A stretch of 64,000 bases of DNA, from contig JBDRQD010000030.1 of assembly GCA_043826455.1 (NCBI GenBank), forward strand, positions 32,001-96,000, in the 5' to 3' direction. Position 1 is the stretch's first letter. The number at the start of each line of letters is the position of its first letter. The notes beneath the pieces are model-generated. The model saw only the letters and a program-made list of their open reading frames with translations, was not told the DNA's origin and searched no databases. The stretch comes from Candidatus Bathyarchaeota archaeon. Its GTDB lineage: Archaea > Thermoproteota > Bathyarchaeia > TCS64. Shown here in pieces: positions 22,957-46,402 of the stretch. The position numbers and the translations under genes were made by a program.

Positions 22957-22970
22957 TATTGGTACCAATA
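22957..22970. repeat. Palindrome TATTGGTACCAATA, copy 1
   Basis: Exact match, intergenic. Confidence 0.97.
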
Positions 22971-23214
22971 GTGTTAATCGGAGCCCTATTTTCCTAAGAA
23001 ACGGGGAAACTATGGTTGAATTGGTTCCCAACCGTAGAGGGATCTTGACTCATCACCTCTTGTCAGCCCAGGTCCACAGGCCACACATGGAATACCTACA
23101 CGTTTTTCCCGTTAAACCCCGGAAGGCGCTCCATGCCTGTGCTCCTTGAACCTCCCCGGAGCACCCTCCTTCTCGTCAAGCAGCCGGAGAGTTGAGCCCA
23201 CGGCAGAGGATGCA

Positions 23215-23622
23215 GAGGGTGCCCCTGAGGGGGTCACGGAGGGTGCCTCTAAGGGTACAAGGGTACCTCGGAGGGGGCTTAGGAGGGGGCTCCTATACCC
23301 CCTCCCCTTTGGCTAAGGAGGCCGGTTACACAATGGAGGAGCTACCCCCCTGGGTAGGCTCTAGCCTCGTAAGGGCCAGGCAAGGCACCCCCACAGGAGC
23401 CACAGGCCGAAGAGAGGCCCCTGCCCAAGCCCATGCTAGGCCCAGAGGAGGCCGCCAGGAGGCTGGCTAAGAGGCTACAGGCCAGGCGTCAAGCCGAGCC
23501 AGAGGCTAACACTATGCTCCTAGGGGGGGTGGTTCAGCAGACGCTGAGGGGGGCCTGGCCTCTGGCCTAGGTAGGGGCCTAGATGGGGGCTCTGATACCC
23601 CCTCCCCTTAGGCTATGAGGAG
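23215..23622. repeat. G/C-run-rich degenerate repeat tract
   Basis: ~12-bp GAGGG(G/T) units from 23215; ~36-bp direct repeat at 23285 and 23585. Confidence 0.7.
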
Positions 23623-23922
23623 GCTCTCCAGCTGCTCAACCAGAAAGAGAGCGGCTCTATTGTCGAGTGTCAGGGGGCAAGTACCGGGTTACCAGCGTCA
23701 ACGGGGAAATCAAGCTCACCCCAATAACCCAGACAGAGGTGCTGGCCGGCCTTTCCCTGGCGGCGGCGGTAAGTAAGGCCATGGTTAACAACGTCGAGGT
23801 GAGCATGCTGGTCGTCGCAAGAAGGTGACCCACCCTTCAGGGATCGCTGAATTGCCCTGATCCGGAGAGCCATTCTGGAAAAGTTAGAAAAGTATATAAT
23901 CCTGGAAAACCCAACAACACAT

Positions 23923-24183
23923 ATGAGCGTCAGCATCAAGGATCTCGACGAGAACGCCTACAGGAACCTCAAAGCCGAAGCCATCCGCCACGGCATGAGG
24001 GTAAGCGAGGCCGCAACCGAAGCCTTCAGACTCTGGGTCGCCTCCAAGAGACAGACGCGCCAAAGAGACCAGGAACGCATGCGGAACGCGGCAGAAGACA
24101 TGGACACGCTGAGAAGCCAAGGCAAGGTTATATGGTCCGGGGCTGAGGAGATAAGGAGATGGCGGGACGAACGGAAGCGGTAG
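23923..24183 (+). CDS. RHH-like antitoxin
   Basis: SIKDLDENAYRNLKAEA...WSGAEEIRRWRD; overlaps PIN gene. Confidence 0.8.
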   Translation: MSVSIKDLDENAYRNLKAEAIRHGMRVSEAATEAFRLWVASKRQTRQRDQERMRNAAEDMDTLRSQGKVIWSGAEEIRRWRDERKR

Positions 24184-24575
24184 TCGACGCCTCCACAGCC
24201 ATTAAATGGCTATCCGAGGAAGAGGGAACCCCCGCCGCCCTCAAACTGAGAGAAGAACACATAGAGGGAACCACAGTCCTGTCCGCCCCCGATCTACTCC
24301 TCTACGAGCTGGCCAACGCCCTCCGATACAGACCAGACTATGACGACGAGAAAGTGACGCAAGCCCTAATCAACGTCATCGACCTCCAGATCGACCTGAT
24401 AACCCCCGGAAGGGAACTCCTCCAACAATCCACCAAAGACGCATACATCTACGATACGACAGTCTACGACTCATGTTACCTCGCCCTCGGTGAACTCATG
24501 GGGGTCGAAGTTTACACGTCTGACAGAAAGTTTTACGAGAAGGCGAAGGGATCAGACATTCTAAGGCTCATTTAA
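24159..24575 (+). CDS. vapC: VapC toxin
   Basis: VVDASTAIKW, YELANAL, TVYDSCYLAL, TSDRK. Confidence 0.9.
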   Translation: MAGRTEAVVDASTAIKWLSEEEGTPAALKLREEHIEGTTVLSAPDLLLYELANALRYRPDYDDEKVTQALINVIDLQIDLITPGRELLQQSTKDAYIYDTTVYDSCYLALGELMGVEVYTSDRKFYEKAKGSDILRLI

Positions 24576-24651
24576 CTCCAAAGCTGCGCGCGCCATGTGT
24601 GTGCATCGATTACAGCCCTGCGCACTTTGAAAGGTGATGCGTACACGCCTC

Positions 24652-25083
24652 CTACCCTAACACTTTAAGAAACTCATCGGGAGTGAGCGAGGCGATGAAG
24701 GCGGAGGCTTTAGTGAACTGCTTGTCCTCAGTGATGACATGGCTGGCCCCTGAGATCACGCCGGAAGCAGCGATGATGGCGTCAGGGAGCCTCATCCCGG
24801 TTTTCGCCCTTATCTTGCCGGCGAGCTCCGCCAACCCGGTATCGACGTCCACGATCGCGTACTCGCCTGTGGAGCGGAAGTGCAGGACGAAGTCCTTGAG
24901 CCCGGTCTCATCACCCGATGTGTGGTAGCCGACAGCGACCTCGGCGATGGTCACAGTTGAGATCGCGGCCCTGGCTTTCCCCGACTCAACCTGGTCAAGG
25001 ATCTCAACCACGCCTTCATACCCAGGCTCCCGGTTGTACACCTTGAGTAGGACGTTCGTGTCGAGAACTACTCTCGGTCCCAC
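24652..25083 (-). CDS. vapC: VapC toxin
   Basis: VLDTNV, TIAEV, LPDAIIAAS, TEDKQF. Confidence 0.9.
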   Translation of the reverse strand: MGPRVVLDTNVLLKVYNREPGYEGVVEILDQVESGKARAAISTVTIAEVAVGYHTSGDETGLKDFVLHFRSTGEYAIVDVDTGLAELAGKIRAKTGMRLPDAIIAASGVISGASHVITEDKQFTKASAFIASLTPDEFLKVLG

Positions 25084-25313
25084 TCCCTACGTAGCCTCCT
25101 CTGGAATGCTAGACTCGGCTCGCCGAGGGGCTTCGCCCTCATTAATATGTCGCTGAGCTTATCCTTTGGAACTTTCCTCAGCGTCACCGTGTCTCCGTCA
25201 GCCTGGAATATTACTTTGTCCCCTTCAGATACACCTAGAGCCACCCGGATGTCCTTCGGTATCGTGACTTGACCCTTGGATGTGACTGAGCTTACTCCTA
25301 CCTCCAACACCAT
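25068..25313 (-). CDS. AbrB/MazE-family antitoxin
   Basis: VTSKGQVTIPKDIRVALGVSEGD. Confidence 0.9.
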   Translation of the reverse strand: MVLEVGVSSVTSKGQVTIPKDIRVALGVSEGDKVIFQADGDTVTLRKVPKDKLSDILMRAKPLGEPSLAFQRRLRREWDRE

Positions 25314-25480
25314 CCCCCGAATAGACGGTCTACATACTTACTTATATGCATTACATTTCTTACTCGAAAATAAGAAAAACTGTGTCTTTGCATGAAGATG
25401 ACCCAGCAAATCTGTGTTACAGGGTCATGAGCGTAGGCGTGAACTACCCACCTTGCGCCTATATGAAGGCGTATATATCC

Positions 25481-25546
25481 CTTACGATGCGGGTTCAATT
25501 CATCCCATGACTGAAGTCATGGACTTTCTTGAACCCGCATCGTAAG
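25481..25546. mobile_element. IS200/IS605-end-like hairpin nested in a perfect 18-bp inverted repeat (non-autonomous remnant)
   Basis: CTTACGATGCGGGTTCAA / TTGAACCCGCATCGTAAG flank TTCATCCCATGACTGAAGTCATGGACTTTC. Confidence 0.6.
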
Positions 25547-25590
25547 AGAAAGCTTTATACCATTACACCATAGAAACAATAATTGGTAAA

Positions 25591-25857
25591 ATGGCAGAAA
25601 TAGTCGAAGTTGATAAATCAGGCCGAATAGTGCTCCCGAAGAGGCTCCGCGACGAGCTAGGCATCCGCGAGAGAACACGGCTGATACTCATGAAGAGAAA
25701 CGGCAAAATAACAATGATGCCCCTCGATGTAGACGAGATAGCCCGAAGGCTAGAGAAAGAGCTAGAGGGGATGGAAGTTGAGGAGATCGCCGCATCCATC
25801 AGGAGGGAGATCAACGCCAAGATCGCGAAGGAGCACCCGGAGCTTTCTGCTGGATAA
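25591..25857 (+). CDS. AbrB-family antitoxin
   Basis: VDKSGRIVLPKRLRDELGI. Confidence 0.88.
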   Translation: MAEIVEVDKSGRIVLPKRLRDELGIRERTRLILMKRNGKITMMPLDVDEIARRLEKELEGMEVEEIAASIRREINAKIAKEHPELSAG

Positions 25858-26260
25858 CAACGTCTTCGTGGCAGCCATAGCCAAACCAAGCCGGACCACT
25901 GGAACACTTAGACTGATCCTCCACCTCATCGCAGACGACGACATACAGCTTATAGGCGACAGGTACCTCGCCGAGGAGATGATCCGCTACGCAGAGGTCT
26001 ACCCCTCAGAGACGGCGGCGTCGCTCCTGGAGGCCCTCGCCTCAAAATTAAAGCTCGTCGATGTAGAGGAAAAGTACCTAAAGATATGCAAGGAATACAT
26101 TGGGACAAATGATCTATCTGACGTGTACCACGCAGCTGCCTGCCTTCAGACCGGATCGGCCCTGATAAGCGATGATGGACACTTCAACCGGATACGGGAC
26201 GAGGGTATAATTAATGTCTGGAGCACCCATCAGGTAATAAAGGAGCTTCTGGGCGTCTAG
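25778..26260 (+). CDS. PIN-domain toxin (start uncertain)
   Basis: LLDNNVFVAA, DVYHAA, ISDDGHF. Confidence 0.82.
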   Translation: MRRSPHPSGGRSTPRSRRSTRSFLLDNNVFVAAIAKPSRTTGTLRLILHLIADDDIQLIGDRYLAEEMIRYAEVYPSETAASLLEALASKLKLVDVEEKYLKICKEYIGTNDLSDVYHAAACLQTGSALISDDGHFNRIRDEGIINVWSTHQVIKELLGV

Positions 26261-26343
26261 AGGAACCTATAATATGATGTTTAGATTCACCTAATTCACG
26301 GTCTCACCTCCGGAAGCCGAGGCACAGCAGCCCCAGAAAGAAG

Positions 26344-26576
26344 GAGGGGGTAACGCGGAGAAACCGGAAACGGCTGCCCCACGCCAAAAGGAGCCACGGA
26401 AACACGCCTTCACGATCCCATTCCATACAGAAACATGGCCCACCCAGCTCATCAGGTGCAGCGCAACGAAAGGGTCTGATGTGAAAAAAGTAGGGGGGTA
26501 TTATATAATGGCGAATTTTTTCATTATTATACGAGATACCAGCCCCCGACGAGGCCGATGACTCGGCACCAAGCCA
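26344..26576 (+). repeat. Dispersed non-coding element, copy R2
   Basis: Aligns with the reverse complement of 16005-16250 and with blocks in 44632-45046. Confidence 0.85.
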
Positions 26577-26691
26577 AAGATAATCAAGATTCTCTTAACT
26601 AAACTGTGGTAATGTGAATATGATAAAATACCATAGGATTCACTATATCCACATAGATTTAGAGCATTACCTGAGGCTACATGGAGGCTGC

Positions 26692-28257
26692 TTGGCGCTG
26701 GTTGAAGGTTTAAACGAGGCCGTCAGGGGGTCGGCGCGGGGCAGCCTCCTGCTCATGGTGGGGCAGGTGGCGTCGACGGTCGTCTCAGCCCTCACCGTTA
26801 TGGCTGTGGCGAGGCTCCTGGGACCTGAGAACTATGGGGTCGTCACCGTCGTCATGGTGCCCATCGGCCTCGCCCTCCTCATACAGGACCTGGGAGTGAA
26901 CACAGCCCTCACCCGGTTCACAGCCCTCCTGCGGAGAGAGGGGCGCCTAGGTGACATAAGGGTCCTTGTCCGGGTCGGCCTAACCTTCAAAGCAGCTGTC
27001 GCTGGGACGATAGCCCTGGGCTACTGGGCTGGGGCCGGGACCATCGCCTCCTTCTATCTCCAGAGGCCTGAGCTCGAGGGGCTCATCAGGGTAGTATCGC
27101 TAAGCGTGCTGGGGGAAGCCTTGATGACGGCTGTGCAGGCGGTCCTAGTGGGGCACGAGATGATGGGTTACAGGAGCTTCACCCAGGTGCTCTGGACGGT
27201 GCTGAGGGGATCCACATCCATCACGCTTGTCTGGATCGGGTTCGGCCCACTAGGACACCTAGTGGCCAACACCGCCGCACCCTTCGCCACGGCCGCGGTA
27301 GCCCTCATTGTCTTACTCTCAACCCTAAAGAAGGATGGCGGAGAGACACACCTGACCAGCCTGGAGGCGCTGAGGATCATCCTGGGGTTCAGCCTACCCC
27401 TATACGGCGCCACGCTCGTAGGGGGCGGCCTCACCCAGATCCAGAACCTTCTCATGACCCTGCATGTGCCCAACAGCGTGATCGGTAACTACTCCGCGGC
27501 CGTCAACTTCGGGGTCCTGATAAGTTTCTTCACCGTCCCCATCGCGACGGTGCTCTTCCCCCTATTCTCAAGGCTGCCCCGCGGTAGCCCTGAGCTGAGC
27601 ACCGTGTTCAGGAACTCGGTGAAGTACACCACCTTCATCACGTTGCCCGTAGCCCTCTGCCTGGTGGCGCTCTCGGAGGCAGTCATAGCCGTGGTGTACG
27701 GTGGTGGGTACCCGCTGGCCGCAGTCTTCATGAAGGTCTACCTCATCCTCTTCCTGTTCGAGGGGATCGGCGGGCTGAGCCTCGGGAACCTGGTGGTGGG
27801 CGTAGGGGAGGCAAAGGTGGCTTTGGCGGCGAACCTGTTGACGGTGCTGGTGGGCGCCCCCATGAGCCTCGTACTGATCCCCTTGTACGGGATCTGGGGC
27901 CTGCTCGCAACCCTGATAGTTGCACCGAGGGTCGGAGCCCTCTTCATGCTCTGGTGGGTGTGGAAAAGCCTAGGCTTCACGGTGGACTGGGGCGCATCTC
28001 TTCGTCTTTACGTGGCTGGACTGGCCGCGTTCCTCACAGCATCCCTCGCCCTCATATTCACCGGAATTAGTGGATGGGCTGCAATCCTGTTAGGCGGAGG
28101 ACTGTTCGCCGCGTCTTACCTAATTACGGTGCCGGCGCTGGGGGCTCTAAGAAAGAGCGACTTAGACGACTTATCCACAATAACCGACGTGAGTGGCCCC
28201 CTCAAGCTACCTCTCACATTGGTACTAACTATTATGGTGCGATTCGTTAAAGAATAA
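26692..28257 (+). CDS. Oligosaccharide flippase (Wzx/MOP family)
   Basis: ARLLGPENYG, DLGVNTALTRF, GNYSAA, about 14 hydrophobic segments; GGAGG before TTG 26692. Confidence 0.88.
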   Translation: MALVEGLNEAVRGSARGSLLLMVGQVASTVVSALTVMAVARLLGPENYGVVTVVMVPIGLALLIQDLGVNTALTRFTALLRREGRLGDIRVLVRVGLTFKAAVAGTIALGYWAGAGTIASFYLQRPELEGLIRVVSLSVLGEALMTAVQAVLVGHEMMGYRSFTQVLWTVLRGSTSITLVWIGFGPLGHLVANTAAPFATAAVALIVLLSTLKKDGGETHLTSLEALRIILGFSLPLYGATLVGGGLTQIQNLLMTLHVPNSVIGNYSAAVNFGVLISFFTVPIATVLFPLFSRLPRGSPELSTVFRNSVKYTTFITLPVALCLVALSEAVIAVVYGGGYPLAAVFMKVYLILFLFEGIGGLSLGNLVVGVGEAKVALAANLLTVLVGAPMSLVLIPLYGIWGLLATLIVAPRVGALFMLWWVWKSLGFTVDWGASLRLYVAGLAAFLTASLALIFTGISGWAAILLGGGLFAASYLITVPALGALRKSDLDDLSTITDVSGPLKLPLTLVLTIMVRFVKE

Positions 28258-28268
28258 CTAGAAACCAC

Positions 28269-28282
28269 TATTGGTACCAATA
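28269..28282. repeat. Palindrome TATTGGTACCAATA, copy 2
   Basis: Exact match, 11 bp after the flippase stop; flanks AAACCA...TGGTTT extend the dyad. Confidence 0.97.
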
Positions 28283-28399
28283 TGGTTTATTTGATGTTGC
28301 TGCACACGTGAAAATTACGAATTGTTCCCTATGAATGAGCGTGCACGCATGACGCAACTTTTTTAACCATTATGTAATGCTATATGCTTTGCCACGAGG

Positions 28400-28591
28400 G
28401 TGTGTGAGATGGCTAAAATAGTGTTTGAAGTGCCGAACGTCTGCGACAGGTGCGGCTTTCACAACTTCAACATAGTTGGATCGATCTACAATGGAGGCTT
28501 CAACTATACTCACCTAGCCGTGCAGTGTATGAGGTGCGGCCACAAACAGGTCGAGATACGCCTCAGACACAGTATTATGGAGACCCTGTAA
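28400..28591 (+). CDS. Small zinc-ribbon protein
   Basis: CDRCG...CMRCG. Confidence 0.6.
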   Translation: MCEMAKIVFEVPNVCDRCGFHNFNIVGSIYNGGFNYTHLAVQCMRCGHKQVEIRLRHSIMETL

Positions 28592-28708
28592 AACCCGCCA
28601 TAAAACAATACATGAAAACCAGAGATGAATAAACACATATTAGATATTCCGTCCACAATGCATTGTACAACCCAATAAAACACAAACCTCATAAACAATA
28701 GTTTCCAT

Positions 28709-29332
28709 ATGGCAACTAAAGTTTACGGTGATAGTATGTTACTCCACAGATACCTTGAAACCCTCCTAGGATCCAAGACCAAAATAAAGATCCTCAGAAC
28801 GCTCCACAGGCACGAAGGAAAAGAATTCACAATAAGAGAACTCTCAAACTTCATCAATACCTCACATACAGGCGTACAAAAAGCACTCCAAGACCTCTAC
28901 GAGATGAACGCGGTAACCCTCAAAGCAGTTGGAAGGTCTCACACAGTGTCACTCAAAGAGGAAAGCCACCTAACCCCAATACTCACCAGCTTATTCAACT
29001 ATGAGGAAGAAACTATTAGGGAACTCCAGAAAGATATCAGAAAACATCTCTGCCATGAACCCACCATAAAACAAGTGAAAATATTCGGCAGCGTAGCCCG
29101 AGGCCAAGAAGAACCTCGAAGCGACATCGACCTCCTAATAATAACCAGCGACAGGGAAAAAACAGAAGAAATCCTCACCGGGTTACAAATCCTGTGTAAC
29201 AATAAATACGGAAACCCCATCATACCCCATATAATAGCAGAGGACGAAAAAAGCAGCCAAAGTCTAATAGAAGAAATACAGGACAAACACATCACCATCT
29301 GCGAGAAAACCCGGGAGATAGAATATGTCTAA
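28709..29332 (+). CDS. wHTH-fused minimal nucleotidyltransferase (MNT antitoxin)
   Basis: N-terminal wHTH; IFGSVARG...SDIDLLII. Confidence 0.88.
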   Translation: MATKVYGDSMLLHRYLETLLGSKTKIKILRTLHRHEGKEFTIRELSNFINTSHTGVQKALQDLYEMNAVTLKAVGRSHTVSLKEESHLTPILTSLFNYEEETIRELQKDIRKHLCHEPTIKQVKIFGSVARGQEEPRSDIDLLIITSDREKTEEILTGLQILCNNKYGNPIIPHIIAEDEKSSQSLIEEIQDKHITICEKTREIEYV

Positions 29333-29726
29333 AACAAGGCATGTAAACAAGGAACTCTACCGAAACTATCTTCAAAAAGCACGTGAAAACTTAGAAACCG
29401 CAAAAGAGTCACTACAAGCCGGACGCTGGAACGCCGCCGTAATAAACGCGGTTCACAGCGGCATAAGCGCAACCGACGCCATAACCGTCTTTATGGTGGG
29501 TGTAAGACACGCAGGAGATAGGCACGAGGATGCTCTTGCGTTACTCCAAACCCTAAATCTACCAAAAGATACACTCAGGGCAAAAAGTAGACAACTGAGT
29601 AGACTACTCAGCATCAAGAACGCCTCTGAGTACGAAGAGAGACTCATCAGGGAAAAAGAGGCGATAGAAGCCGTAAAAGACGCTGAAAGATACTTTGAAT
29701 ATGTGGAAGCTATACTTCACACATAA
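29325..29726 (+). CDS. HEPN-domain toxin
   Basis: YLQKARENL, AVHSGISATDA, GDRH, KNASEY; overlaps MNT stop. Confidence 0.85.
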   Translation: MSKTRHVNKELYRNYLQKARENLETAKESLQAGRWNAAVINAVHSGISATDAITVFMVGVRHAGDRHEDALALLQTLNLPKDTLRAKSRQLSRLLSIKNASEYEERLIREKEAIEAVKDAERYFEYVEAILHT

Positions 29727-29830
29727 CTCATCATCTATTCTTACATTTTAAGAGGAACTTGATCTTAGGTAACCAGCGTCAATAATATATCCCATAGTGG
29801 TCGCAGTCGTCGCCCTGGCCTCCCCAAGTA

Positions 29831-30397
29831 GTGTACGCGTTATACGCAGAGGGCTACCTGTACGCGGACGCCTACATGAGGCTCTACATGCTTCAGTTCA
29901 TCTCCCTCAGGTTAGGTGGAGTAGGTCTGGTAAGCCTCTTAATCGCGTTAAAGGAGACCCGCGTCGTCTTCACCTATTCTCTCATCAACTTTCTGGTAAC
30001 CATCTCCTTGGGACTGGTACTTATACCGGGGCTTGGCGTCAACGGGCAAATAGCATCCATCACTCTAGGCCCGTTAACCGGGCTATCCTACGGGCTATGG
30101 TGGGTTAAGAAAAATCTGGGCATCACAATCGACTTTACAGTCGCATCCAAAACCCTTCTAGCAGCCATCGCCGCCTGCCTCACCACCAACGTATTCGTCT
30201 CTATGTCTAACCTCAACCCCTGGCTCACTTTGCTTATAGACAGAGCCATATGCATGACCGTCTACGTCGCCTCAGTCATCACATTAAAGGTGCTGAACCA
30301 CAGGGACATAGACAACCTAGAGAACATCACCACCGGCCTAGGACCCCTATCGCCGCCCCTAACACACGTACTCAGATTGTTGAAACAGGTCACCTAG
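29831..30397 (+). pseudogene. C-terminal fragment of a second flippase
   Basis: Collinear with the last ~190 aa of 26692..28257 (LVLIP.LG..G, WWVKKNLGITID, DIDNL..IT...GPL). Confidence 0.75.
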
Positions 30398-30489
30398 TAT
30401 GCGCACGCGGCCCCCCTCTCACCCCTTATATTTCACTGAACCCTAGCCACTTTAAACATGTTTTATAATCTCGTCAACCTAAACCAGCA

Positions 30490-30503
30490 TATTGGTACCA
30501 ATA
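30490..30503. repeat. Palindrome TATTGGTACCAATA, copy 3
   Basis: Exact match; extends to ATATTGGTACCAATAT. Confidence 0.97.
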
Positions 30504-31880
30504 TAGCGCCGGGTGCTCACACCCAGCCCAATCAACTCACTTTGGACGCATAAGTGCTATCAAGCTTGATACTGGTTGAATAGCGTCAGTTGTGCCGTTG
30601 AGAAAAAAGGGTGACCTCGCAATGCGGCACATGGTTGGCGGTATCAAAGAAATGGTGTTGATTGGATCTAATTCATTACCTTATCTGTGTTAGCTCTACC
30701 TCGATCCTCTCTGAGACCCACGTGGTCCCTGTAGAGCTCCAGTAGGATTACCCGGAGCTCGCCTCTTCTCAGGGTGGTTGGACAGCAGGGCCTCTCTCAG
30801 GTCGGTGACCTGGTCCGATCCCTTCTTGAATGCTTGGATGTACCTGTCACGCAGGTAAGTGTACATGTCTCCCTCGAGGAGGCTGAGTATGATCCTCAGG
30901 GCTGTACCCCTCACCCTGGCATCAGTTGTCTCCAGGAGCCTCTCCATGGCTCCCTGTGTCGCCTCACGCACCCTGCGCCTCGACTCCTCGCTACCCCTGC
31001 TGAGGATGTTCTGGACAACCTTGGTTAAAGGTTGGATGCTGTGTTGACAATGTGTCATAAGCAGTATAGCGACCTTACAATGTGCTTGTTGAGTGGTTCA
31101 AGGTGAAGCGCATGCGGTTATTGGTGCTGTCAGAGGCTCTACTCTGGGATCGTCTATAGCTCTCGAGGAACTTGAGGCCTTAGGATGCACGCTAGTAGGA
31201 GCGCCCAGGTCCAAGGGAGAACCTGTTGACAGCGGCGATCATGGATGCGAGGATGTCTATATCTTGTTGAGGATCATGCGGGTTATGGCGGCGAAAGCGG
31301 CTGCGTAAGCATCCATGGTGAGAGGTTGCATAGACTGAAGATTTGGGCAGGTGGCGTGGTGAGTTTACTATGAGCTTCGCCCAGTGTTCTCAGGGTATCT
31401 ACGATTTAATGTCTTTTTTCAGATAGACCATAGTACACATTGGGGAGTCCTCGGCCCTCCAGGAAACCAGTTATTGGCTACACGTGTGGGGACCAGGAAC
31501 TCTTCAACGAACTGGTTGAAAAGGTACTTCCTAACCAACGGGTTGGCTGGCGCTCAAGGATTCGCTCAAGACCCTGTTGAGACTGAAGGAACTGGGCATC
31601 GCCGTTGGGAAACCTCCTTTGTAGGTAGGTTCGATAACCATGGGAGCCTAACAGGAACTTGGGTCATAACTACAGCAGGAGCAGCCTTAACCTGAGCCGG
31701 AACCAGTTGGGGAACCTCCTCAACTTAAGCAACAACCTGTTAATGAACCTCAGTAGAACCAGGCTAAGCAACCTAAACCTGAACTTAAACTATACTTACT
31801 AGAAATTCAGTTCCTAGGGACTGGTCCTTCGTGGCCGCCCGTTCAAGTTCAGTTTCAGGTTCCAATAGGGGTATAACAAC

Positions 31881-32235
31881 CGGTTCACAAACTGGTTCAC
31901 TCAGGTTCCTCTCAGGTTTCCTTCGTGTTATGCTCAGGTTTCTCTCAGGTTCAATTTGGCTATCCTCCAGTTATCGCTTGGTTTCCATCAGGCTTTCCCA
32001 TGGTTTCCCTCAGGCTTTCCTCCGGCTTTCGCGTGGCTTCACTAAGGCTTCCTTCAGCTTCCCTTCAGCCTTCGCGTGGCTTCCCTTAGGTTATCCTTCA
32101 GCTATCCCGTGGTTTCCATCAGGCTTCCCTCCAGCTATCCCGTGGTTCCTTCCAGTTGTCACGCGGTTTCCCTCTAGCTATCCTCCAGTTATGCCGTGGC
32201 TCCCCTCAGGTTCAACCAAGTTCACTCTCTAGCTC
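31881..32235. repeat. Degenerate tandem repeat, ~30 units, 11-bp period
   Basis: Units such as AGGTTTCCTTC, TGGTTTCCATC, CAGCTATCCCG, AGGCTTCCCTC. Confidence 0.85.
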
Positions 32236-32599: not shown

Positions 32600-32613
32600 T
32601 ATTGGTACCAATA
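32600..32613. repeat. Palindrome TATTGGTACCAATA, copy 4
   Basis: Exact match; shares the 20-mer TAGTTTATTGGTACCAATAG with copy 1. Confidence 0.97.
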
Positions 32614-38245: not shown

Positions 38246-38478
38246 AGTAGTCCTCTTCTAGCTTGGCTTTTAATCGATAGTGCCCCACAAGGTGAACTGC
38301 TCTACATTCCAAGGGCTTCTCTCCAGGGTGCCGATGACCGTGTCGAAGTCTTCCCGCTCAATGTTCTGCTCGCTGCACACTATCAGCCAGGCTACCTCTT
38401 CTCCTTCCCCTATATGAGGAATTACACCTTGAGACGCTTTCCTTGTAATGACTGTGTCTTGATTGGAAAATCGTTTAT

Positions 38479-39762
38479 ATGCAAGCCAACGTTAAAAAAG
38501 AGTGGGTCTGGAGCGTGTGCGAGAACCCTATTAGAGTATTATTAGTAGACAGTGATCATCAGGCGGCCAGGTTCACCAAGGTCAACCTGAGGATCCTGGC
38601 CCCTGACATCGAGGTCACTCTCACCGGCTCGCCGGGGCAAGCGCTTGAAAAGTTGAAGCAGGAAGAGTACCACTGTGTCGTCTCCGAGTACGCGTTACCG
38701 GAGATGCACTTCGTCCAGCTATGCTCAAGAGTCAAGGAGCTCACCGACCTGCCCTTCATCCTCTACACGGGGTGGAGAGACGAGGAACTGGCTGAGCAAG
38801 CCTACACTAGTGGAGTGGACACCGTCATCAGGAAAGAGGAGAGTATAGGCCACTTCAACATTCTCGTAAAGGGGATCCGCGACGCAGTCGAAGCCTACTG
38901 GCAGAGAAGGCTCTACAGGGACATAGTGGAGGGCAGCCGCGACGCCATAATGATCACCGTCGAGTCCACGATAAAGTACGTCAACGACGCTTTCCTCGAC
39001 ATGTTCAGGGCCACACATGATAAGGTTGTAGACTCATCTATCATGGATTTCATGGGGCCCCTGGAGAGGCGCCTCATCGAGGGAGTCGAGGCACAGACGA
39101 TTGTCCCTCGAAGACCCATAATCTATGAAATCGCCTACAGTCCCGTGAAGGGTGTAGAGCATAGATACGAGGCCTCTGCATCCTCCATGACCTACAGAGG
39201 ACAGACAGCTAAGCTGTTCTTCATCAGAGACGTTACGGATAGGCGTGAAAGAGACCATCTGCTGAAGGCGTTGTACAATCACTTGATCCTTCTGGAAGAG
39301 ACAAAAGAAGTATCTGAGGTGGCGGATATAACCTTGGACATCATGGAGCAGGTCCTGGGTTTCCAGTTCGCCTGCTTCCAGTTAGAGCGAGGTGGTGTCC
39401 TTCACGCTATTGGAACCAGAGGCGCACCTCTCATAAGTAAAGGTTTGCCGTTGACAGGCAATGGGGTGACCGTCCGAGCCGCGGTCACGGGTAGAACCCA
39501 GTATGTCCCGGATATCCGCGTGGATCCAGACTTCATCAAGGGTTCCACAGATTCCCTTTCGGAGCTAGCCGTCCCTGTGATAATCGGCGATAGGGCAGTT
39601 GCGGTCTTAAATGTGGAGCGCCTGGAGGCCGATGCCTTCACGGCCTTCGACCAGCAACTCTTAGAGACATTAGCTCTACAAGTTGCCTCAGCCCTCAAAG
39701 GAGGCCCTCAATTGACGCGTATGGAACACGAAAAAGTCGCGAAGTCTCTAAACCCTCATTGA
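38479..39762 (+). CDS. REC-PAS-GAF signalling protein
   Basis: IRVLLVD, PFILYTG, YVNDAF, RDVTDR, SELAVPV..VLNVE. Confidence 0.85.
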   Translation: MQANVKKEWVWSVCENPIRVLLVDSDHQAARFTKVNLRILAPDIEVTLTGSPGQALEKLKQEEYHCVVSEYALPEMHFVQLCSRVKELTDLPFILYTGWRDEELAEQAYTSGVDTVIRKEESIGHFNILVKGIRDAVEAYWQRRLYRDIVEGSRDAIMITVESTIKYVNDAFLDMFRATHDKVVDSSIMDFMGPLERRLIEGVEAQTIVPRRPIIYEIAYSPVKGVEHRYEASASSMTYRGQTAKLFFIRDVTDRRERDHLLKALYNHLILLEETKEVSEVADITLDIMEQVLGFQFACFQLERGGVLHAIGTRGAPLISKGLPLTGNGVTVRAAVTGRTQYVPDIRVDPDFIKGSTDSLSELAVPVIIGDRAVAVLNVERLEADAFTAFDQQLLETLALQVASALKGGPQLTRMEHEKVAKSLNPH

Positions 39763-39901
39763 GTAAAGTACGATTCATGGAACACCGAAAAGGATTCTAT
39801 GAGTAGACTTCCCTCTTTTCAGCCATAATTTGCGCGCTCGTGATCCTGGTTGTCCCTGCTAACGATGATCCATGAATCCGGCTCAACCGTTAAGACCATG
39901 G

Positions 39902-39915
39902 TATTGGTACCAATA
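39902..39915. repeat. Palindrome TATTGGTACCAATA, copy 5
   Basis: Exact match; shares the 20-mer GTATTGGTACCAATACACGT with copy 6. Confidence 0.97.
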
Positions 39916-39947
39916 CACGTATATTTTGGGTTAACCTACACTAAGCT

Positions 39948-40178
39948 ATGGTTCGCAGGCACAGGATCAGCGAGGAGGAGGTTAGGCCTGTGATGAGGGC
40001 TGTGCATCGGTGCCTCGCCGAGATGGTTGGGGCTGAGCTGCTCTCCGAGGACGCGTACCACCTGTACACGTTACTGTGGAGGTTTAAGGAGCACAGGTCG
40101 GGGCCGCCCCACTACCCCGACGCGACCCGCGAGGCCATATTAAGTCTCCTTGATGAAACCTCTGCGATGCTCTGGTGA
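39948..40178 (+). CDS. Hypothetical protein
   Basis: ORF with gene-like codon usage. Confidence 0.5.
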   Translation: MVRRHRISEEEVRPVMRAVHRCLAEMVGAELLSEDAYHLYTLLWRFKEHRSGPPHYPDATREAILSLLDETSAMLW

Positions 40179-40271
40179 GGGCGCGCAGGAGTAGCCACTG
40201 ACTATTCCATACGTGTGTGTATCTACTACCTGCATAGTTTGAAAGGAAGCAGGTGATTAGGACTTTCACTC

Positions 40272-40976
40272 ATGTGCCGCCAATCTGTGCGTAGGTTTCT
40301 TTCCACAGGGCTCCAAGTATTTGCCATGAATTATGTTGTCGTTCTCGGTGAGGCGCTTCTCGCCGCCGAGCCCGAGGAGAAGGTCAGGATAGCCCATGCA
40401 ATCTATGAGCTGGAGGACGCCCGGGCTGAGGCGTACCTCCTCGACGCGCTGGGCGAGTCTGACAATCAGGCGCGGGCAGCTGTAGCCTACGCCCTCAGCG
40501 TCTCCGCCACCCACAGATCAGAGGAGAGGCTAATCCAGCTCCTTGACGACTCCTACTTTGCTGTGAGGGTCTGGGCAGCCTGCGGATTGGCCCACCTTAG
40601 GAGTCGTGCCGCGGTGCCGAGGCTGATTGAGGCGCTCCACGATGAAGAGGAGGGTGTCGTGGCCGCCGCTGTGTCCGCCTTGGGGGAAATAGTGGACCGG
40701 AGGGCCGTGGAGCCCTTGGTGGGGCTTCTCACTGGCAGGAGGTACATCTCTGGAGTTTTACTGTCGCTGGGCTCCATAGGAGACCCCGGTGTAGTCGAGA
40801 TCATCGCGGGCTACCTGGACGACTCCGACCAGGATATACGAGAATCAGCGTTGATAGCCCTCAGACGCTTCCCCGGCTCTGTTCCCCGCGCAGAACTGCA
40901 GAGGCTCCTGGAGTGGGAGAGGGATGCAGTGAATAGAGGCTTGGCCAGTTACCTGTTAGGACTTGAACCTAACTGA
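40272..40976 (+). CDS. HEAT-repeat (PBS-lyase-like) protein
   Basis: Repeated AVPRLIEAL.D....V...A..ALG units. Confidence 0.8.
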   Translation: MCRQSVRRFLSTGLQVFAMNYVVVLGEALLAAEPEEKVRIAHAIYELEDARAEAYLLDALGESDNQARAAVAYALSVSATHRSEERLIQLLDDSYFAVRVWAACGLAHLRSRAAVPRLIEALHDEEEGVVAAAVSALGEIVDRRAVEPLVGLLTGRRYISGVLLSLGSIGDPGVVEIIAGYLDDSDQDIRESALIALRRFPGSVPRAELQRLLEWERDAVNRGLASYLLGLEPN

Positions 40977-41063
40977 TGGATCACATTGCTAACGCAACAC
41001 AGCATTCACAGCCACTACATAATTTTAATATTAACTTAATTATATCAATAGCGGGGCGTCTGG

Positions 41064-41432
41064 ATGAGCTATGAACTTGACACCGGTAAGGAGGGCCTCC
41101 TAATGTTCTTCAAGCCCTGGGAGTTCAGGATCATGTCATACCTTTGGGGCATCAAGCCCTCGGGCGCTAACAGCAGAGCCGTCTGGATCCATAATCATCA
41201 AACCATGGCTGAGCCCATCAGCAGGACCTCGGTGATCAAATTCCTGAAGCTCATGGCTGAAAAAGGGGTTCTCACGGTAGAGGAAAAGTCTGGTAAAGGA
41301 GGCTACCAAGGGATATATTATCAGAAGTACACTGAGCCGGAGTTTAGGCAGTACATTGCTAAACACTTCATAACTAAGCTGTTGAAGGAGTTTCCTGAGA
41401 AGACGCGAAAAGTCATAGAGAGTTATACATGA
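41064..41432 (+). CDS. BlaI/CopY-like winged-helix protein
   Basis: WEFRIMSYLW...ISRTSVIKFLKLMAEKGVL...GKGG. Confidence 0.65.
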   Translation: MSYELDTGKEGLLMFFKPWEFRIMSYLWGIKPSGANSRAVWIHNHQTMAEPISRTSVIKFLKLMAEKGVLTVEEKSGKGGYQGIYYQKYTEPEFRQYIAKHFITKLLKEFPEKTRKVIESYT

Positions 41433-41495
41433 TAACGTGAGCACAATTAGGAATCATTTTAAATAACTCTTTTTGTATATTTTAATTGATATAAT

Positions 41496-41738
41496 ATGAG
41501 TGAAGTCAATTATGATCTTACTCCTGTTGAGAAAAAACCAGGCAGAAGGTATCGTAAAGGAAGCAAGTATGACCCTATACTTGATAAATTCCTCGAAGGT
41601 AAGCATAAACTAGTCACAGTTGATGTGGCTGGAAAGGAAGCTAACTACATTAGCATGCAGCTGAAGAAAAGGATCGATGCTCGCGGACTCAAGGTCAGAG
41701 TATCAGTGGCAAATAACAAAGCCTACCTAGAAAAATAA
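41496..41738 (+). CDS. Small basic hypothetical protein
   Basis: AT-rich promoter-like DNA upstream; RYRKGSKYDPILD. Confidence 0.6.
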   Translation: MSEVNYDLTPVEKKPGRRYRKGSKYDPILDKFLEGKHKLVTVDVAGKEANYISMQLKKRIDARGLKVRVSVANNKAYLEK

Positions 41739-41739
41739 C

Positions 41740-42714
41740 TTGCGTACAATTCTAATAATATCAAGGCGCAGGAGTAAGGTGATGACTGAGATACTTGTGA
41801 CCGGCGGAGCAGGCTTCATAGGCACTAATCTGGTCAACGAGCTGAGGCGCCGCGGCCACCGGGTTCACGCCGCAGACCTCATCAACACAGACCGAGAAGG
41901 CTACACCCGGGTCGATGTCCGCAGCTACAGACAACTCGAAAAGCTGCTCGACGCCCACAAGTTCGATGTCGTATACCACCTGGCGGCGGAGTACGGCCGC
42001 TGGAACGGTGAGGACTACTACGAGAACCTCTGGCAGACAAACTGCGTAGGCACCAAGCACATTATACGGTTACAGGAAAAACTTGGCTTCAGGATGATCT
42101 TCTTCAGCAGCGCCGAGGTATACGGCGACTACACGGGCACCATGACCGAGGACGTCATGATCAACAACCCCGTCAAAGACACCCTCCAGATGAACGACTA
42201 CGCCATCACCAAGTGGGCCGGCGAACTCATGTGCATCAACGCAGCCAAGATGACCGGCGCAGAGATAGTCCGCACCCGGCCAGTGAACTGCTACGGCCCC
42301 CACGAGCACTACACGCCCTACCGCGGCTTCATACCCAAGTTCATCTACCACGCACTACACAGGAAACCCTACACCGTCTACACAGGCCACAAACGCATCA
42401 TCGACTACGTCGAAGACTCGTGCCGCACATGGGCCAACATAGTAGACAACTTCAAGCCGGGCGAAGTCTACAATGTGGGCGGCTGCCCCGAGTGGATGCA
42501 CACCATCAAGGAGTACAGCGACATGGTCCTCGAGGCCGTGGGCCTCGACGACCGCCTGGTCACCTACAAGCCCACGGAGCCCCACACAACCCAGATCAAG
42601 ACCATCGACTGCACCAAGGCTGTACGCGACCTCAAGCACGACCCCAAGGTGCCCCCCGAGGAGGGCATCAGGCGAACAGTTGAATGGATGAAGTGGTACT
42701 ATAGGATGGATTAG
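41740..42714 (+). CDS. NAD-dependent sugar epimerase/dehydratase (start probably ~41782)
   Basis: VTGGAGFIG, HLAA, SSAEVYG, YAITK. Confidence 0.92.
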   Translation: MRTILIISRRRSKVMTEILVTGGAGFIGTNLVNELRRRGHRVHAADLINTDREGYTRVDVRSYRQLEKLLDAHKFDVVYHLAAEYGRWNGEDYYENLWQTNCVGTKHIIRLQEKLGFRMIFFSSAEVYGDYTGTMTEDVMINNPVKDTLQMNDYAITKWAGELMCINAAKMTGAEIVRTRPVNCYGPHEHYTPYRGFIPKFIYHALHRKPYTVYTGHKRIIDYVEDSCRTWANIVDNFKPGEVYNVGGCPEWMHTIKEYSDMVLEAVGLDDRLVTYKPTEPHTTQIKTIDCTKAVRDLKHDPKVPPEEGIRRTVEWMKWYYRMD

Positions 42715-42715
42715 G

Positions 42716-43711
42716 ATGAGCGTATACGACTGCGTGAAAGATAAGACGGTTCTGGTCACCGGCGGAGCCGGAGCCATCGGAGGCAACCTGGTCAGGAAGC
42801 TGGTCGAGCTCCAAGCCAAGGAGGTAGTGATCCTCGACAACCTCAGCAGCAGCTACGCCTGGAACATCCCCCCAGCCCCCGGCGTCAGGTTCATCCAGGG
42901 CGACATCCTGGACGACGAGAAACTCAAGTGGGCCTTCAAGCACAAGCCCGAAATCGTCTACCACCTTGCCGCCCACTTCGCAAACCAGAACAGCGTCGAC
43001 AACCCTGAGACAGACCTCATGGTGAACGGCATGGGCATCCTTAAAGTGCTTCAATACAGCCAACTCACCGGCGTAGACCGCTTCATCTACGCGTCCAGCG
43101 GCTGCGGCATATACGGAGAGGACAGCCCCATGCCCTTCAAAGAGGAGTCCGTCTCCATGAAGCTCTACACCCCCTACCAGGTCACCAAGATGCTGGGCGA
43201 ACTCTACACCAACTACTACCACAACCTCTACGACATGCCCACCGTCAACGCCCGGTTCTTCAACAGCTACGGCCCCGGCGAGGTCCCCGGCAGGTACAGG
43301 AACGTCATCCCCAACTTCATATACTGGGCCATCAACGGCCAGCCCCTACCAATAACAGGCACCGGCGACGAGACCAGGGACTTCACCTATGTAGGCGACA
43401 TCGTCGACGCCCTGATCCGCATGGCGTACTTCGATGAAGCAATAGGGGAAGCCTTCAACATAGGAACCTCCAGAGAGATAATGATCAAGGACCTAGCACA
43501 GTGGATCAATGAATTAACTGAAAACTCGGCCGGAATCGTTTACAAGCCTCGCCGCAACTGGGATAAGAAAAACCGGCTTCTAAGTAGCATAGAGAAAGCC
43601 CGAAGAGTCCTCAGATACGATCCAAAGACCGACTTCAAGGAGGGCCTCGGCCACACCTACAACTGGTTCACAGAGAACCTGGACAACATCAAACACTCAG
43701 CAGAGTTCTAA
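42716..43711 (+). CDS. NAD-dependent sugar epimerase/dehydratase
   Basis: VTGGAGAIG, YQVTK, RFFNSYGP, TRDFTYV. Confidence 0.92.
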   Translation: MSVYDCVKDKTVLVTGGAGAIGGNLVRKLVELQAKEVVILDNLSSSYAWNIPPAPGVRFIQGDILDDEKLKWAFKHKPEIVYHLAAHFANQNSVDNPETDLMVNGMGILKVLQYSQLTGVDRFIYASSGCGIYGEDSPMPFKEESVSMKLYTPYQVTKMLGELYTNYYHNLYDMPTVNARFFNSYGPGEVPGRYRNVIPNFIYWAINGQPLPITGTGDETRDFTYVGDIVDALIRMAYFDEAIGEAFNIGTSREIMIKDLAQWINELTENSAGIVYKPRRNWDKKNRLLSSIEKARRVLRYDPKTDFKEGLGHTYNWFTENLDNIKHSAEF

Positions 43712-43782
43712 GCCGCCTGAAGACCTTAACCCTTACCCGACATCAGAAATCAACAACATGCCCCCCTAACAGATATAAACCC

Positions 43783-44031
43783 GTGTACAGAACCGTTTAC
43801 ATGGCCACCATGACACAGGTCCAAGTCAAAATACCGGAGAACCTCGTCAAAAAGATTGACGAATGGATCATAGACGGCAGGTTCACCAGCAGAAGCGAGG
43901 CCATCAGAACCATCCTCACCCTCTACGAGGAACGGGAACGCACCCGAGAGTTCTACACGATGCTCCACGGCAGAGCCTCCGAGGCCCAGGAGCACCCCGA
44001 GCTGCTCATACCCTTAGAGGAAGCCCCTTGA
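43783..44031 (+). CDS. RHH antitoxin
   Basis: VKIPENLVKKID...FTSRSEAIR. Confidence 0.8.
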   Translation: MYRTVYMATMTQVQVKIPENLVKKIDEWIIDGRFTSRSEAIRTILTLYEERERTREFYTMLHGRASEAQEHPELLIPLEEAP

Positions 44032-44291
44032 GGATCCTCCTCCACCCCAAGGCTGCCGAGTACCTCATGAAAAGTAGCGACGATCCTCGGTCAAGAATAA
44101 AGCAGCGCCTACACGAGTTGGACGACCAGCCCGAGAAGAAGGGAAAACGACTGAAACACTCGCCCTATTATAGCCTTCGGATAGGAGACTACAGAGCCAT
44201 CTACATGGTAGACCCGGTTAAAGCCCAAGTCGTCATCCTGTACATCGGCCACAGAAAGGACGTCTACGACGCCTTCGATAAAATATTCTAA
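44028..44291 (+). CDS. relE: RelE/ParE-family toxin
   Basis: TTG start overlapping the antitoxin stop; GKRLK..YSLRIGDYRAIY...IGHRKDVY. Confidence 0.87.
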   Translation: MRILLHPKAAEYLMKSSDDPRSRIKQRLHELDDQPEKKGKRLKHSPYYSLRIGDYRAIYMVDPVKAQVVILYIGHRKDVYDAFDKIF

Positions 44292-44328
44292 CTAAACAAA
44301 CACGGCATATAGTAGCCGTACAATAATA

Positions 44329-44547
44329 ATGAAAGCCAAGAAAATAGGTCTCACTGCTCCAATCCCGTCGCTTCTCCAGGGGCTTCTCCATGGCGTACCC
44401 AGCTCTCGCCGGGCTGCCGTAAACCAAAGTATCGATGGGCACATCTGGCCAGAGACCTATACGGTTACCGTGTTCTGCAGGATTGATGTCGTAGATTACC
44501 ATGCAGTAATGAACGACGAGCACAGCGACTACAAGTGGGTAAACTAA
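44329..44547 (+). pseudogene. Possible NUDIX hydrolase C-terminal remnant
   Basis: Ends ...MNDEHSDYKWV, resembling a NUDIX C-terminus; no Nudix box. Confidence 0.35.
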
Positions 44548-44631
44548 GCACCAGAAGACGCTCGCCCTCCTACTGCAAATGATCTAGGAATCAAAGATCT
44601 TCCTACAATAATGACAACCATGCATCAACCG

Positions 44632-45046
44632 CTAAGAAAGGGTAGAGAGGTGTCCTAAGCAAAAAATCCGTAAAATATGGGTCTTAATTTATCCATTCAG
44701 CGGAGACGAAGCCGCCCCAAGGAATAGTAATAGATTACATGAAAAGCACTCACAATGGTTGAAGAACCCTTGCTTGCAACTCCCATTATTAGCACCAATC
44801 CCTTCACTATCCTGCCACATACAGAAAAGCACCGAAAAGCATCAACCCTGAAAAAGATGAATTTTTTTCCGCCTTATCCCGGCGGGGGCGGGATAAGAGG
44901 CACGGACACACTGGGTAATGAGTCCACTGTGAAAAAACGTAGGGGGGTACTATATTATGACGAATTTTTCTACCATAAAACGGGTCACTCGCCACCCGCG
45001 AGGCCAAAAAAACCCGGGGAACACACGTGAAAAAGGTAGGGGGGTA
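44632..45046 (+). repeat. Dispersed non-coding element, copy R3 (expanded, core motif duplicated)
   Basis: Blocks at 44701-44722, 44801-44827, 44929-44991 and 45027-45046 match R1/R2 in order. Confidence 0.7.
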
Positions 45047-45298
45047 CCAATTTTAGGAAGAGAAAACCTCCTAAAATAGGGGTCAGAGCCCCATACATGA
45101 GGCAAAAGAAGCCCATGACCACGACACTCACACCAAAGAAGATAACTAAAATCCTCTGAATTAGGTTGCCTCGTTCCTATGTTGTTCAAGGAGGGCATCG
45201 GTCACACCTATAACTGGTTTATGTGAACTGGGAAAACATCAAACAGTCAGCCGAGTTCTAACTCAACAATAAAATAACTGTACATCAATCTTAGACTG

Positions 45299-46378
45299 AT
45301 GGCTCTCGGCATCATCCTCGGCACCCGCCCCGAGATAATAAAGATGGGCCCCATAATACGCCTATGCGAGAAGAGGTCCGTCCCCTACTACCTGCTCCAC
45401 ACTGGCCAGCACTACAGCTACGAGATGGATCAGGCCTTCTTCAGGGACCTGGAGCTACCCGAGCCCAGGATCAACCTGAACGTGGGCTCAGGCACCCACG
45501 CGGAGCAGACGGCCAGCATCATGGTCGGCGTAGAGAAGACCCTGCAGAAGGAGGACACAGGCGTAGCCCTCGTCCAGGGGGACACCAACACCGTCCTGGC
45601 CGGCGCCTTGGCCGCCGCCAAGCTCCAGGTTCCAGTGGGCCATGTGGAGGCCGGGCTGCACAGCTACGACAGGGGGATGCCGGAGGAGATCAACCGGGTG
45701 GTAGCCGACCACCTGTCCGACTTCCTCTTCGCGCCCACAGAGGAATCCAAGAGAAACCTCCTCAAGGAGGGCATACCCGATGAAAGGATCCATGTCACAG
45801 GCAACACAGTGGTGGACGCCGTCCACCAGAACCTGGAGCTGGCCAAGGAGAAGTCAACGATCCTGAAGAAGCTGTCCCTGGAGCCCGGCCAGTACATGGT
45901 GGTCACAGCCCACCGCGCCGAGAACGTCGACCGCAGAGACCGGCTCACAGGGATAATAGAGGGCCTTGGCCTAGTCGCGGAGCACCTGGACCAGCCCATC
46001 ATCTACCCCGTCCACCCCCGGACACAGAAGATGATCAAGGAGTTCAGGCTGACGACCCGGAACCTCAAGATCGTTCAGCCCCTAGGCTACCTGGACTTCC
46101 TGGCCCTGGAGGCATCATCTAGCCTGGTCCTCACCGACTCCGGCGGCGTCCAGGAGGAGGCCTGCATACTGGGCGTCCCCTGCGTCACGCTGCGGGAGAA
46201 CACGGAGCGCCCCGAGACCCTTCAGGTGGGCTCGAATGTCTTGGTCGGGGCAGAGCCGGAGAGGATACTCCAAGGAGCCTTGGAGATGAGCCGGAGGAAG
46301 AGGGGTTGGCCTAATCCCTTCGGGGACGGAAACGCGGCGGAGAAGATTATTAAAATTATCGAGGAATCCCGAAATTAA
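45299..46378 (+). CDS. wecB: UDP-N-acetylglucosamine 2-epimerase (non-hydrolysing)
   Basis: GTRPEIIK, TGQH, QGDTNT, HVEAGL, HRAEN, TDSGGVQEE, TERPE. Confidence 0.93.
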   Translation: MALGIILGTRPEIIKMGPIIRLCEKRSVPYYLLHTGQHYSYEMDQAFFRDLELPEPRINLNVGSGTHAEQTASIMVGVEKTLQKEDTGVALVQGDTNTVLAGALAAAKLQVPVGHVEAGLHSYDRGMPEEINRVVADHLSDFLFAPTEESKRNLLKEGIPDERIHVTGNTVVDAVHQNLELAKEKSTILKKLSLEPGQYMVVTAHRAENVDRRDRLTGIIEGLGLVAEHLDQPIIYPVHPRTQKMIKEFRLTTRNLKIVQPLGYLDFLALEASSSLVLTDSGGVQEEACILGVPCVTLRENTERPETLQVGSNVLVGAEPERILQGALEMSRRKRGWPNPFGDGNAAEKIIKIIEESRN

Positions 46379-46402
46379 CGTGTATTGGTACCAATACACG
46401 TT
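46377..46402. repeat. Palindrome copy 6, extended to a perfect 26-bp dyad
   Basis: AACGTGTATTGGTACCAATACACGTT, overlapping the wecB stop codon; core at 46383-46396. Confidence 0.97.

Follow-up and report, generated by a model that had tools for sequence, protein, structure and literature searches.

What do six identical copies of a 14-bp palindrome do in one accessory island of an archaeal chromosome, and is there a protein that they serve? The question is raised by a stretch of 64,000 nucleotides from Candidatus Bathyarchaeota archaeon (contig JBDRQD010000030.1, positions 32,001 to 96,000; "the window" below is this whole stretch), in which an earlier sequence-only reading had seen six intergenic copies of TATTGGTACCAATA and proposed an undescribed cis-acting site. 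Our analysis supports such a site and points to a likely partner that had not been evident: the product of an unannotated open reading frame (ORF) of 231 bp behind copy 5, a 76-residue protein of what we call the RRHR family. Judging from how site and protein sequences vary together, this protein very probably binds the palindrome directly. Whether the bound sites also act as exchange junctions, so that sites and gene spread together as a minimal self-spreading element, we consider an evenly balanced question.

The palindrome and its variants

In what follows, G000 is the genome of the window (a 2.95-Mb assembly), other G numbers are related genomes, C numbers contigs and L numbers fetched stretches. 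Sites are copies of the 14-bp palindrome, which occurs as the window variant TATTGGTACCAATA, as the sister variant AATGGTACCATT in G000 and as further variants TAATGGTACCATTA and TATTTGTACAAATA.

The six copies were found where the sequence-only reading had placed them, and their number is far above chance. The window contains seven matches when up to two mismatches are allowed, against 0.14 expected, and seven were reached in 0 of 100 shuffles. No other exact copy exists in the whole assembly. The sister palindrome occurs 18 times in G000, mostly in five clusters, and the two variants, with 18 and 7 copies against a mean of 0.10, rank first and second among 960 palindromes of the same composition. 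In 93 distinct sites no information extends past 14 bp, degeneracy is near zero and flank symmetry shows no excess beyond expectation. A fold-back or hairpin origin of the flanks was rejected on this last ground and on the lack of inverted similarity between spacers; the 26-bp dyad at copy 6 stands alone.

Among relatives, the exact 14-mer is present in 12 of 24 genomes of the same genus and in 0 of 16 genomes of other families. When the pattern is widened slightly, 15 of 31 genomes of the genus have a match, versus 1 of 39 others in the family. In relatives the palindrome is often arrayed, with 4-7 copies just upstream of an RRHR gene and periods of 13-102 bp. The earlier statement that the palindrome is confined to the island is true only of the window variant within G000, whereas relatives carry that variant in arrays and core genes. 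In the literature, TATTGGTACCAATA was not found in any paper and nothing was found on the RRHR protein or its site, in searches that left supplements and subscription papers outside and could miss a mention of the family. The string AATGGTACCATT occurs in one review, unrelated as far as its accessible text goes, and the accessible part of a paper on Bathyarchaeia viruses (PMC10848311) mentions neither site nor protein.

A small protein that tracks the sites

Homologues of the 76-residue protein sit directly behind the arrays of relatives. A profile search gave 234 representatives at E up to 0.001, and a second search gave 264 proteins whose listed names are "hypothetical" or absent. Members occur in 26 of the 63 genomes searched from this archaeal family and in 0 of 237 others in the class; a metagenome scan returned at least one locus with a member, and three scans of viral contigs returned no relative. 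Several ribbon-helix-helix (RHH) and winged helix-turn-helix (wHTH) proteins are encoded nearby in the window, and these were set aside as partners because the 76-residue ORF tracks both the presence and the variant of the site.

Presence was compared with the pattern AWTGGTACCAWT at a threshold of at least four sites per genome, leaving out genomes under 70% complete. Within the genus, 16 of 17 gene-bearing genomes reach this threshold versus 2 of 13 gene-lacking ones (Fisher p 1.5e-5, which is overstated because kin are not independent), and 11 of the 13 gene-lacking genomes hold only 0-2 sites.

The variant was compared in a survey of half-sites from -450 to +120 bp around homologues. All 11 loci encoding a G-P-P-x-YP loop have T-type half-sites only (80 T, 0 A), while at the remaining 17 loci with sites the counts are 20 T and 83 A. 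On a quick tree of 113 family proteins the loop and half-site label changes at least three times, and in G017 tandem paralogues each have their own variant, one being TATTTGTACAAATA. The sequences therefore indicate that the site variant follows one loop residue.

The near-invariant residues of the family are RRHR, E, L, R and GxPxYP, and the structure model has three helices and no strand (predicted local distance difference test, pLDDT, 90). From the order of the helices, the invariant residues likely cluster at one end of a helical hairpin. The GRP loop is, we assume, reminiscent of AT-hook-like minor-groove arms. Searches of the protein against Pfam, PHROGs, NCBIfam and PADLOC gave no match; Foldseek (pdb and viral) gave E 0.76 or worse, VIA-align a best Z of 6.0 to generic helical bundles, and the Atlas blank or weak results with one unnamed cluster at 0.90. 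Such blank family and fold searches do not establish a new fold. The homodimer prediction scored 0.22 against a mark of 0.42, which has no bearing on dimerisation either way. No fused form of the family was found in the A1 search. Separately, P0263, a 373-residue tRNA-synthetase-like protein, begins with 23 residues equal to the RRHR N-terminus and is either a natural fusion or an assembly chimera.

Sites inside genes

Among 49 further sites in 40 fetched stretches, 31 lie inside mechanically called ORFs of unrelated genes. In the ORFs of G000, 5 of 25 codon-compatible positions are perfect AATGGTACCATT (0.02 expected) and 0 have one mismatch (0.48 expected); 300 control palindromes gave 13 observed, those 5 included, versus 12.3 expected. 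Perfect in-frame sites in housekeeping genes follow an all-or-none pattern. In one gene both arms change jointly between lineages at two codon positions (VLVPI versus IMVPL), and the one-mismatch copy in the RACo gene of the window has a perfect counterpart at the same codons in G014 and G042. The termini of the RRHR proteins themselves are translations of two site types, with a start MVP(L/F) paired with an end NGT/MVP, or a start MVH/MDH paired with an end NGP, and these types are clustered on the tree (4 changes versus 20 shuffled).

The depletion of one-mismatch forms fits a converting process, and such a process might belong to another host factor, of repair or methylation, that makes the palindromes while the small gene rides along. 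A model of this kind has been proposed for HIP1 (PMC4390886, accessible text), and no RRHR gene could be detected in three genomes that do have sites, G182 (a single contig, 92% complete), G009 and G041. Even so, we find this explanation very improbable, as the variant follows a protein loop residue over at least three changes, even in tandem paralogues, and as so few sites are held by the gene-lacking genomes of the genus.

Changes between sites

When contigs or fetched stretches of relatives were aligned at the same locus, four changes were found to run from site to site. A segment of 353 bp with the gene is present in G044 and absent from G000:C81, joined at a site. A 104-bp block of two units is extra in G013 compared with L213, and an array at mtd has lost two units in a strain contig, with the joint exactly at the last base of site 1 (depth 2.2, one contig). 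In a methyltransferase-like gene of G019, 229 bp between two in-gene sites are replaced by 134 unrelated bp (alignment z -0.3 inside, 43 and 33 in the flanks). Further, an array in G000:C15 occupies the place of a single near-match at a gene start in G008. The four site-to-site changes favour the recombination site that the sequence-only reading had offered as one option, whereas the borders of the window's own island are not at sites.

The arrays at the RRHR gene bear on a regulatory role. Between five genomes the array sites are 96-100% identical, while in the nine distant pairs spacers are 36-49% identical and third codon positions 57-73%; the one close pair gives 89% and 95%. Despite the saturated spacers, the last array site is centred at -14 and the next at -80 from the RRHR start codon in all five, and an operator role is kept as a rival because of these fixed distances. 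Elsewhere the site at the own gene is centred at -39 (window) or -80 (G013).

The protein might thus be a captured element repressor, with operators at its own gene and road-blocks at gene borders, perhaps conferring immunity, and the rearrangements would then be by-products of repeats. The fixed positions fit regulatory selection, some sites lie over the start codon in element-borne homologues, several orphan arrays are in promoter regions, and three of the six window copies are just past stop codons. However, most further sites are inside ORFs of unrelated genes, the all-or-none codon pattern and near-zero degeneracy are unlike a graded regulon, G019 has exchanged DNA for unrelated DNA, and element-borne genes are often coupled to the gene before them and have no promoter at the site. 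We therefore regard the repressor as a possible but rather unlikely explanation.

Homologues in mobile elements

Chromosomal copies of the gene stand at many unrelated loci, usually within or behind a site array, and G214 has six copies of which several are broken. G000 has two further homologues in integrated elements (C10 and C67), after helicase or primase genes, and the homologues of G106 and G234 are likewise in integrated elements. In proviruses and integrative elements, the homologues have variants of the site at their ends and are often stop-start coupled to the upstream gene. Neighbours vary between elements, so that no gene is a constant partner. The elements C67, C10 and G106:C24 have 2-3 motif matches each; in C67 and C10, matches to the tested motif are only at or inside the homologue, and the sole perfect AATGG(A/T)CCATT of G000 is inside the C67 homologue gene.

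Several observations concern the elements themselves. The C67 element (G000:C67:29371-36183, L177) is integrated by a tRNA-like sequence and has two tyrosine recombinase genes, the second of which (221 residues) gave no match to an N-terminal SAM-like domain and overlaps the stop codon of the RRHR homologue. In L130:8030-10748 (G106) and L179:3689-6442 (G234) the homologue is adjoined by a GHKL-ATPase gene with a partner of no known family (split in G106, fused to 917 residues in G234), a pair that we take to resemble topoisomerase VI/VIII. A decayed fourth homologue (14 bits) at G000:C11:9526-9675 is followed by degenerate AATGG..CCATT motifs. The C10 element (G000:C10:1169-10282, L178) is provirus-like, and C1:540, C7:759 and C49:5907 are related contigs with membrane-protein genes. 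A second family of palindromes occurs in the C10 element and these three contigs, frequently at the ends of genes: TGCTCCACGTGGAGCA with 8 exact copies and TGTTCCACGTGGAACA with 2. The TGTTCCACGTGGAACA string occurs in the accessible text of papers on bacterial parS, yet ParB_N was not found in G000.

In another rival reading, the sites would be centromere-like or chromosome-organising loading sites of the parS, matS or AspA type, serving a one-protein partition or tethering factor acquired from a mobile element. A sharply bounded perfect 14-mer, arrays beside the gene and scattered in-gene copies with synonymous and conservative changes agree with this, and AspA binds a palindrome upstream of its own gene (PMC5120986, accessible text). 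Yet no recurring ATPase or ParB partner was seen beside chromosomal copies, where the neighbours in relatives were judged by eye. The gene is missing in 37 of the 63 family genomes searched and often broken, and array loci differ between close relatives. We consider such a role quite unlikely.

Proposed mechanism and points against it

In the reading that we prefer, the protein would bind the site as a dimer via its clustered invariant residues (RRHR arm, E11, R45, GxPxYP loop), and binding would pair two sites or render them fragile. Strand exchange would be carried out by a recombinase or repair pathway of the host or the element, less likely by the protein itself, and near-matches would thereby be fixed as perfect sites. 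The family may derive from proviruses and integrative elements. The closest homologues of the window gene (80-82% DNA identity) are at a different locus and the rest of G000 keeps the AATGG variant, which suggests that a TATTGG-type gene arrived late in the window. The six sites would have appeared at distances of up to 17 kb from it, for the most part in harmless positions at the ends of genes, and after most island modules were in place.

A bolder version, which we think unlikely, makes the 76-residue protein itself the catalyst or an indispensable adaptor of a new site-specific exchange. It would then pair and cut the palindrome by means of its invariant RRHR, Arg45 and Tyr56, overwrite near-matches in genes with perfect sites, build arrays, swap site-bounded DNA and move its own gene, with the specificity reprogrammed by one loop residue. 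If true, this would be a mobile element of about 0.3 kb without a known transposase or recombinase fold.

Several results weigh against the preferred reading. No catalytic or DNA-binding fold was recognised in the protein, and 76 residues is small for a recombinase. Outside the genus the co-occurrence is weaker: at least four sites are present in 4 of 10 genomes with the gene and in 3 of 24 that lack it. Nine homologues, most of them in a mobile-element context, are without a perfect site in the surveyed -450/+120 bp. The three genomes with sites and no detectable gene, as well as the fixed start-codon distances, belong here too. Deletion and duplication between 12-14-bp repeats can occur without a dedicated factor; of the site-to-site events, the G019 replacement alone calls for something further, and its evidence is a single assembled contig. 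No rearranged forms were found at copies 2-6 in contigs, which drop rare variants. In comparisons with G008, G013, G005 and G016, no island breakpoint was found at a site, so the synteny breaks that the sequence-only reading had suggested to look for do not fall exactly on the copies. Homology to the closest relative, G008, resumes about 63 bp past copy 6, the junction of the epimerase pair with other DNA is remote from any site, and the wecB and flippase ends of relatives have no site. Finally, the flippase, nucleotidyltransferase-HEPN and DUF3368 modules recur site-free in G005, a genome that lacks the gene.

The copies in the window

The island is bounded on the left by the end (21660) of a large surface-protein-like gene and on the right by a CoA-transferase gene (46546), and it contains toxin-antitoxin pairs, flippase pieces, signalling genes, epimerases and wecB. 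The features related to the palindrome are listed in Table 1.

Table 1. Palindrome copies and the RRHR-family ORF in the window.
Feature	Position	Strand	Setting
One-mismatch copy	13359..13372		In frame in RACo gene, codons DIGTNT
Copy 1	22957..22970		Adjoins weak 5'-truncated VapC-like remnant read on minus strand; 20-mer common with copy 4
Copy 2	28269..28282		11 bp past stop of flippase gene (26614-28257)
Copy 3	30490..30503		92 bp past flippase fragment (29831-30397)
Copy 4	32600..32613		21 bp past stop of broken Lrp-like gene
Copy 5	39902..39915		Ends 32 bp ahead of RRHR gene start; centre at -39
RRHR-family ORF (76 residues)	39948..40178	+	Starts 32 bp past copy 5; loop GPPHYP, the type paired with TTGG half-sites
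Copy 6	46383..46396		4 bp past wecB stop (45299-46378); centre of perfect 26-bp dyad

That the copies are intergenic was upheld: none is in a family-matched gene or a long ORF, and copies 2 and 6 overlap only short mechanical ORFs on the opposite strand. The pairing of flanks also stands, with a 20-mer common to copies 1 and 4, another to copies 5 and 6, and AAACCA ahead of copies 2 and 3. Three of six copies are at most 25 bp past a stop codon (6.9% of intergenic positions qualify; p about 0.006), and the Lrp fragment is supported (tblastx E 5.6e-6, internal stop), while the VapC remnant is weak (pairwise E 0.004). Contigs of a public run, which may be the source of this DNA itself, cross copies 2-6 at even depth and without rearranged joints, and a contig from a second study spans copy 5 with no difference. 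An assembly or adapter artefact, which the sequence-only reading had named as a possible refutation, was rejected on these grounds. No RNA run was listed that contains this stretch.

Other repeats were seen in and around the island. The last 148 bp of the surface-protein-like gene are duplicated (91%) around a ParE toxin module (21548-21695 and 22326-22473), which resembles a target duplication at the left edge of the island; similar ends are on C48 and C11. A dispersed non-coding repeat of about 270 bp (26322-26595 and 44834-45094) is like a miniature inverted-repeat transposable element and has dozens of copies in the genome at 67-85%. A 78-bp direct repeat (85%) lies at the ends of the epimerase/ParE region (43634-43711 and 45185-45261), and in G008 the epimerase pair joins directly to DNA matching the window from 61823 onward. 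Low-complexity repeat tracts without a family match (23266-23624 and 31700-32230) lie between site-bounded modules, and cassettes of G214 carry similar tracts.

Comparison with known systems

By analogy, the system appears to work most like REP/RAYT (repetitive extragenic palindromes and their associated transposases) and HIP1, with features of operators and of AspA-type centromeres, while it fails the defining tests of each. In REP/RAYT a short gene is flanked by copies of its own palindrome, with a repeat type for each protein variant (PMC3337134, accessible text). The RRHR gene is likewise flanked by several copies of its own repeat type, and the repeats also occur elsewhere in the genome with varying spacers. 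It differs in having no HUH-Y1 transposase gene of about 500 bp, the protein being all-helical, of 76 residues, with no HUH and no Pfam match. There are no inverted doublets either (of 131 spacer pairs, 4 resemble each other in direct orientation and 0 when one is inverted), and the site is perfect over 12-14 bp, lacks conserved flanks and has about 2-30 copies rather than hundreds. Many copies are in-frame substitutions in genes, and the gene itself is mobile and can be multicopy.

HIP1 of cyanobacteria is a palindrome that is over-represented in coding DNA as well, whose version varies between lineages and whose pattern suggests that it is actively made (PMC4390886, accessible text). Our palindrome is also perfect, over-represented in coding DNA too and present in alternate versions by lineage. 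Unlike HIP1, which has a very high frequency across the genome and a cognate methyltransferase, it is 14 bp long, arrayed and tied to a small non-methyltransferase protein of mobile-element origin, and it has only 6 and 18 copies in G000, where GGTACC methyltransferases were not searched for.

Stoperators serve a single small protein of a mobile element in large number, both around its own gene and where genes start or end, and our sites resemble them in this. The 13-bp stoperators of the L5 phage repressor are an example (PMC3203893, accessible text). The fixed positions at the start of the RRHR gene recall such operators; the differences are that our sites are palindromic, that no HTH or RHH was recognised, and that intact elements examined have 2-3 sites each, the large arrays being chromosomal. 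As with parS, matS and Noc sites, our perfect palindromes are tolerated inside genes. As in AspA/SegB, a small putative binder has a palindrome upstream of its own gene (PMC5120986, accessible text), yet unlike ParABS, AspA and SegAB there is no recurring ATPase, no ParB_N in G000 and no wHTH or RHH match, and the gene is patchy, mobile and often broken.

An integron attC site is a long imperfect inverted repeat with conserved R and L boxes and a GTT box. Like integron cassettes, our sites lie just past stops in a toxin-antitoxin-rich island and bound gains and losses. Unlike them, they have no long imperfect hairpin or GTT box, their information ending at 14 bp, and the intervals are multi-gene or sub-gene. 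No integrase is among the island ORFs scanned, tyrosine integrases being only in the elements C67 and G106:C24.

CRISPR-like spacer capture was rejected. CRISPR repeats are about 23-47 bp with spacers of constant length taken up from other DNA, whereas here the repeat is 12-14 bp and the spacers are inherited and diverged. Except for the gene-bearing one, 31 intervals match G000 no better than reversed controls (viral targets were not searched), and no cas gene is among 52 window proteins scanned, the neighbours in relatives being read by eye only. Unlike tyrosine and serine recombinases, the 76-residue protein has no catalytic-domain match in Pfam, NCBIfam or PHROG, and it does have an invariant set of Arg-His-Arg, Arg and Tyr.

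At a minimum, the comparison leaves a new family of very small, predicted sequence-specific DNA-binding proteins from archaeal mobile elements, for which both the site and a candidate one-residue specificity switch are available. Should bound sites promote exchange, the system would propagate itself in the manner of REP/RAYT or HIP1 with no known enzyme. It would then show how a short palindrome enters coding DNA, which is still to be explained for HIP1, and could yield a compact module for long-site DNA binding or recombination.

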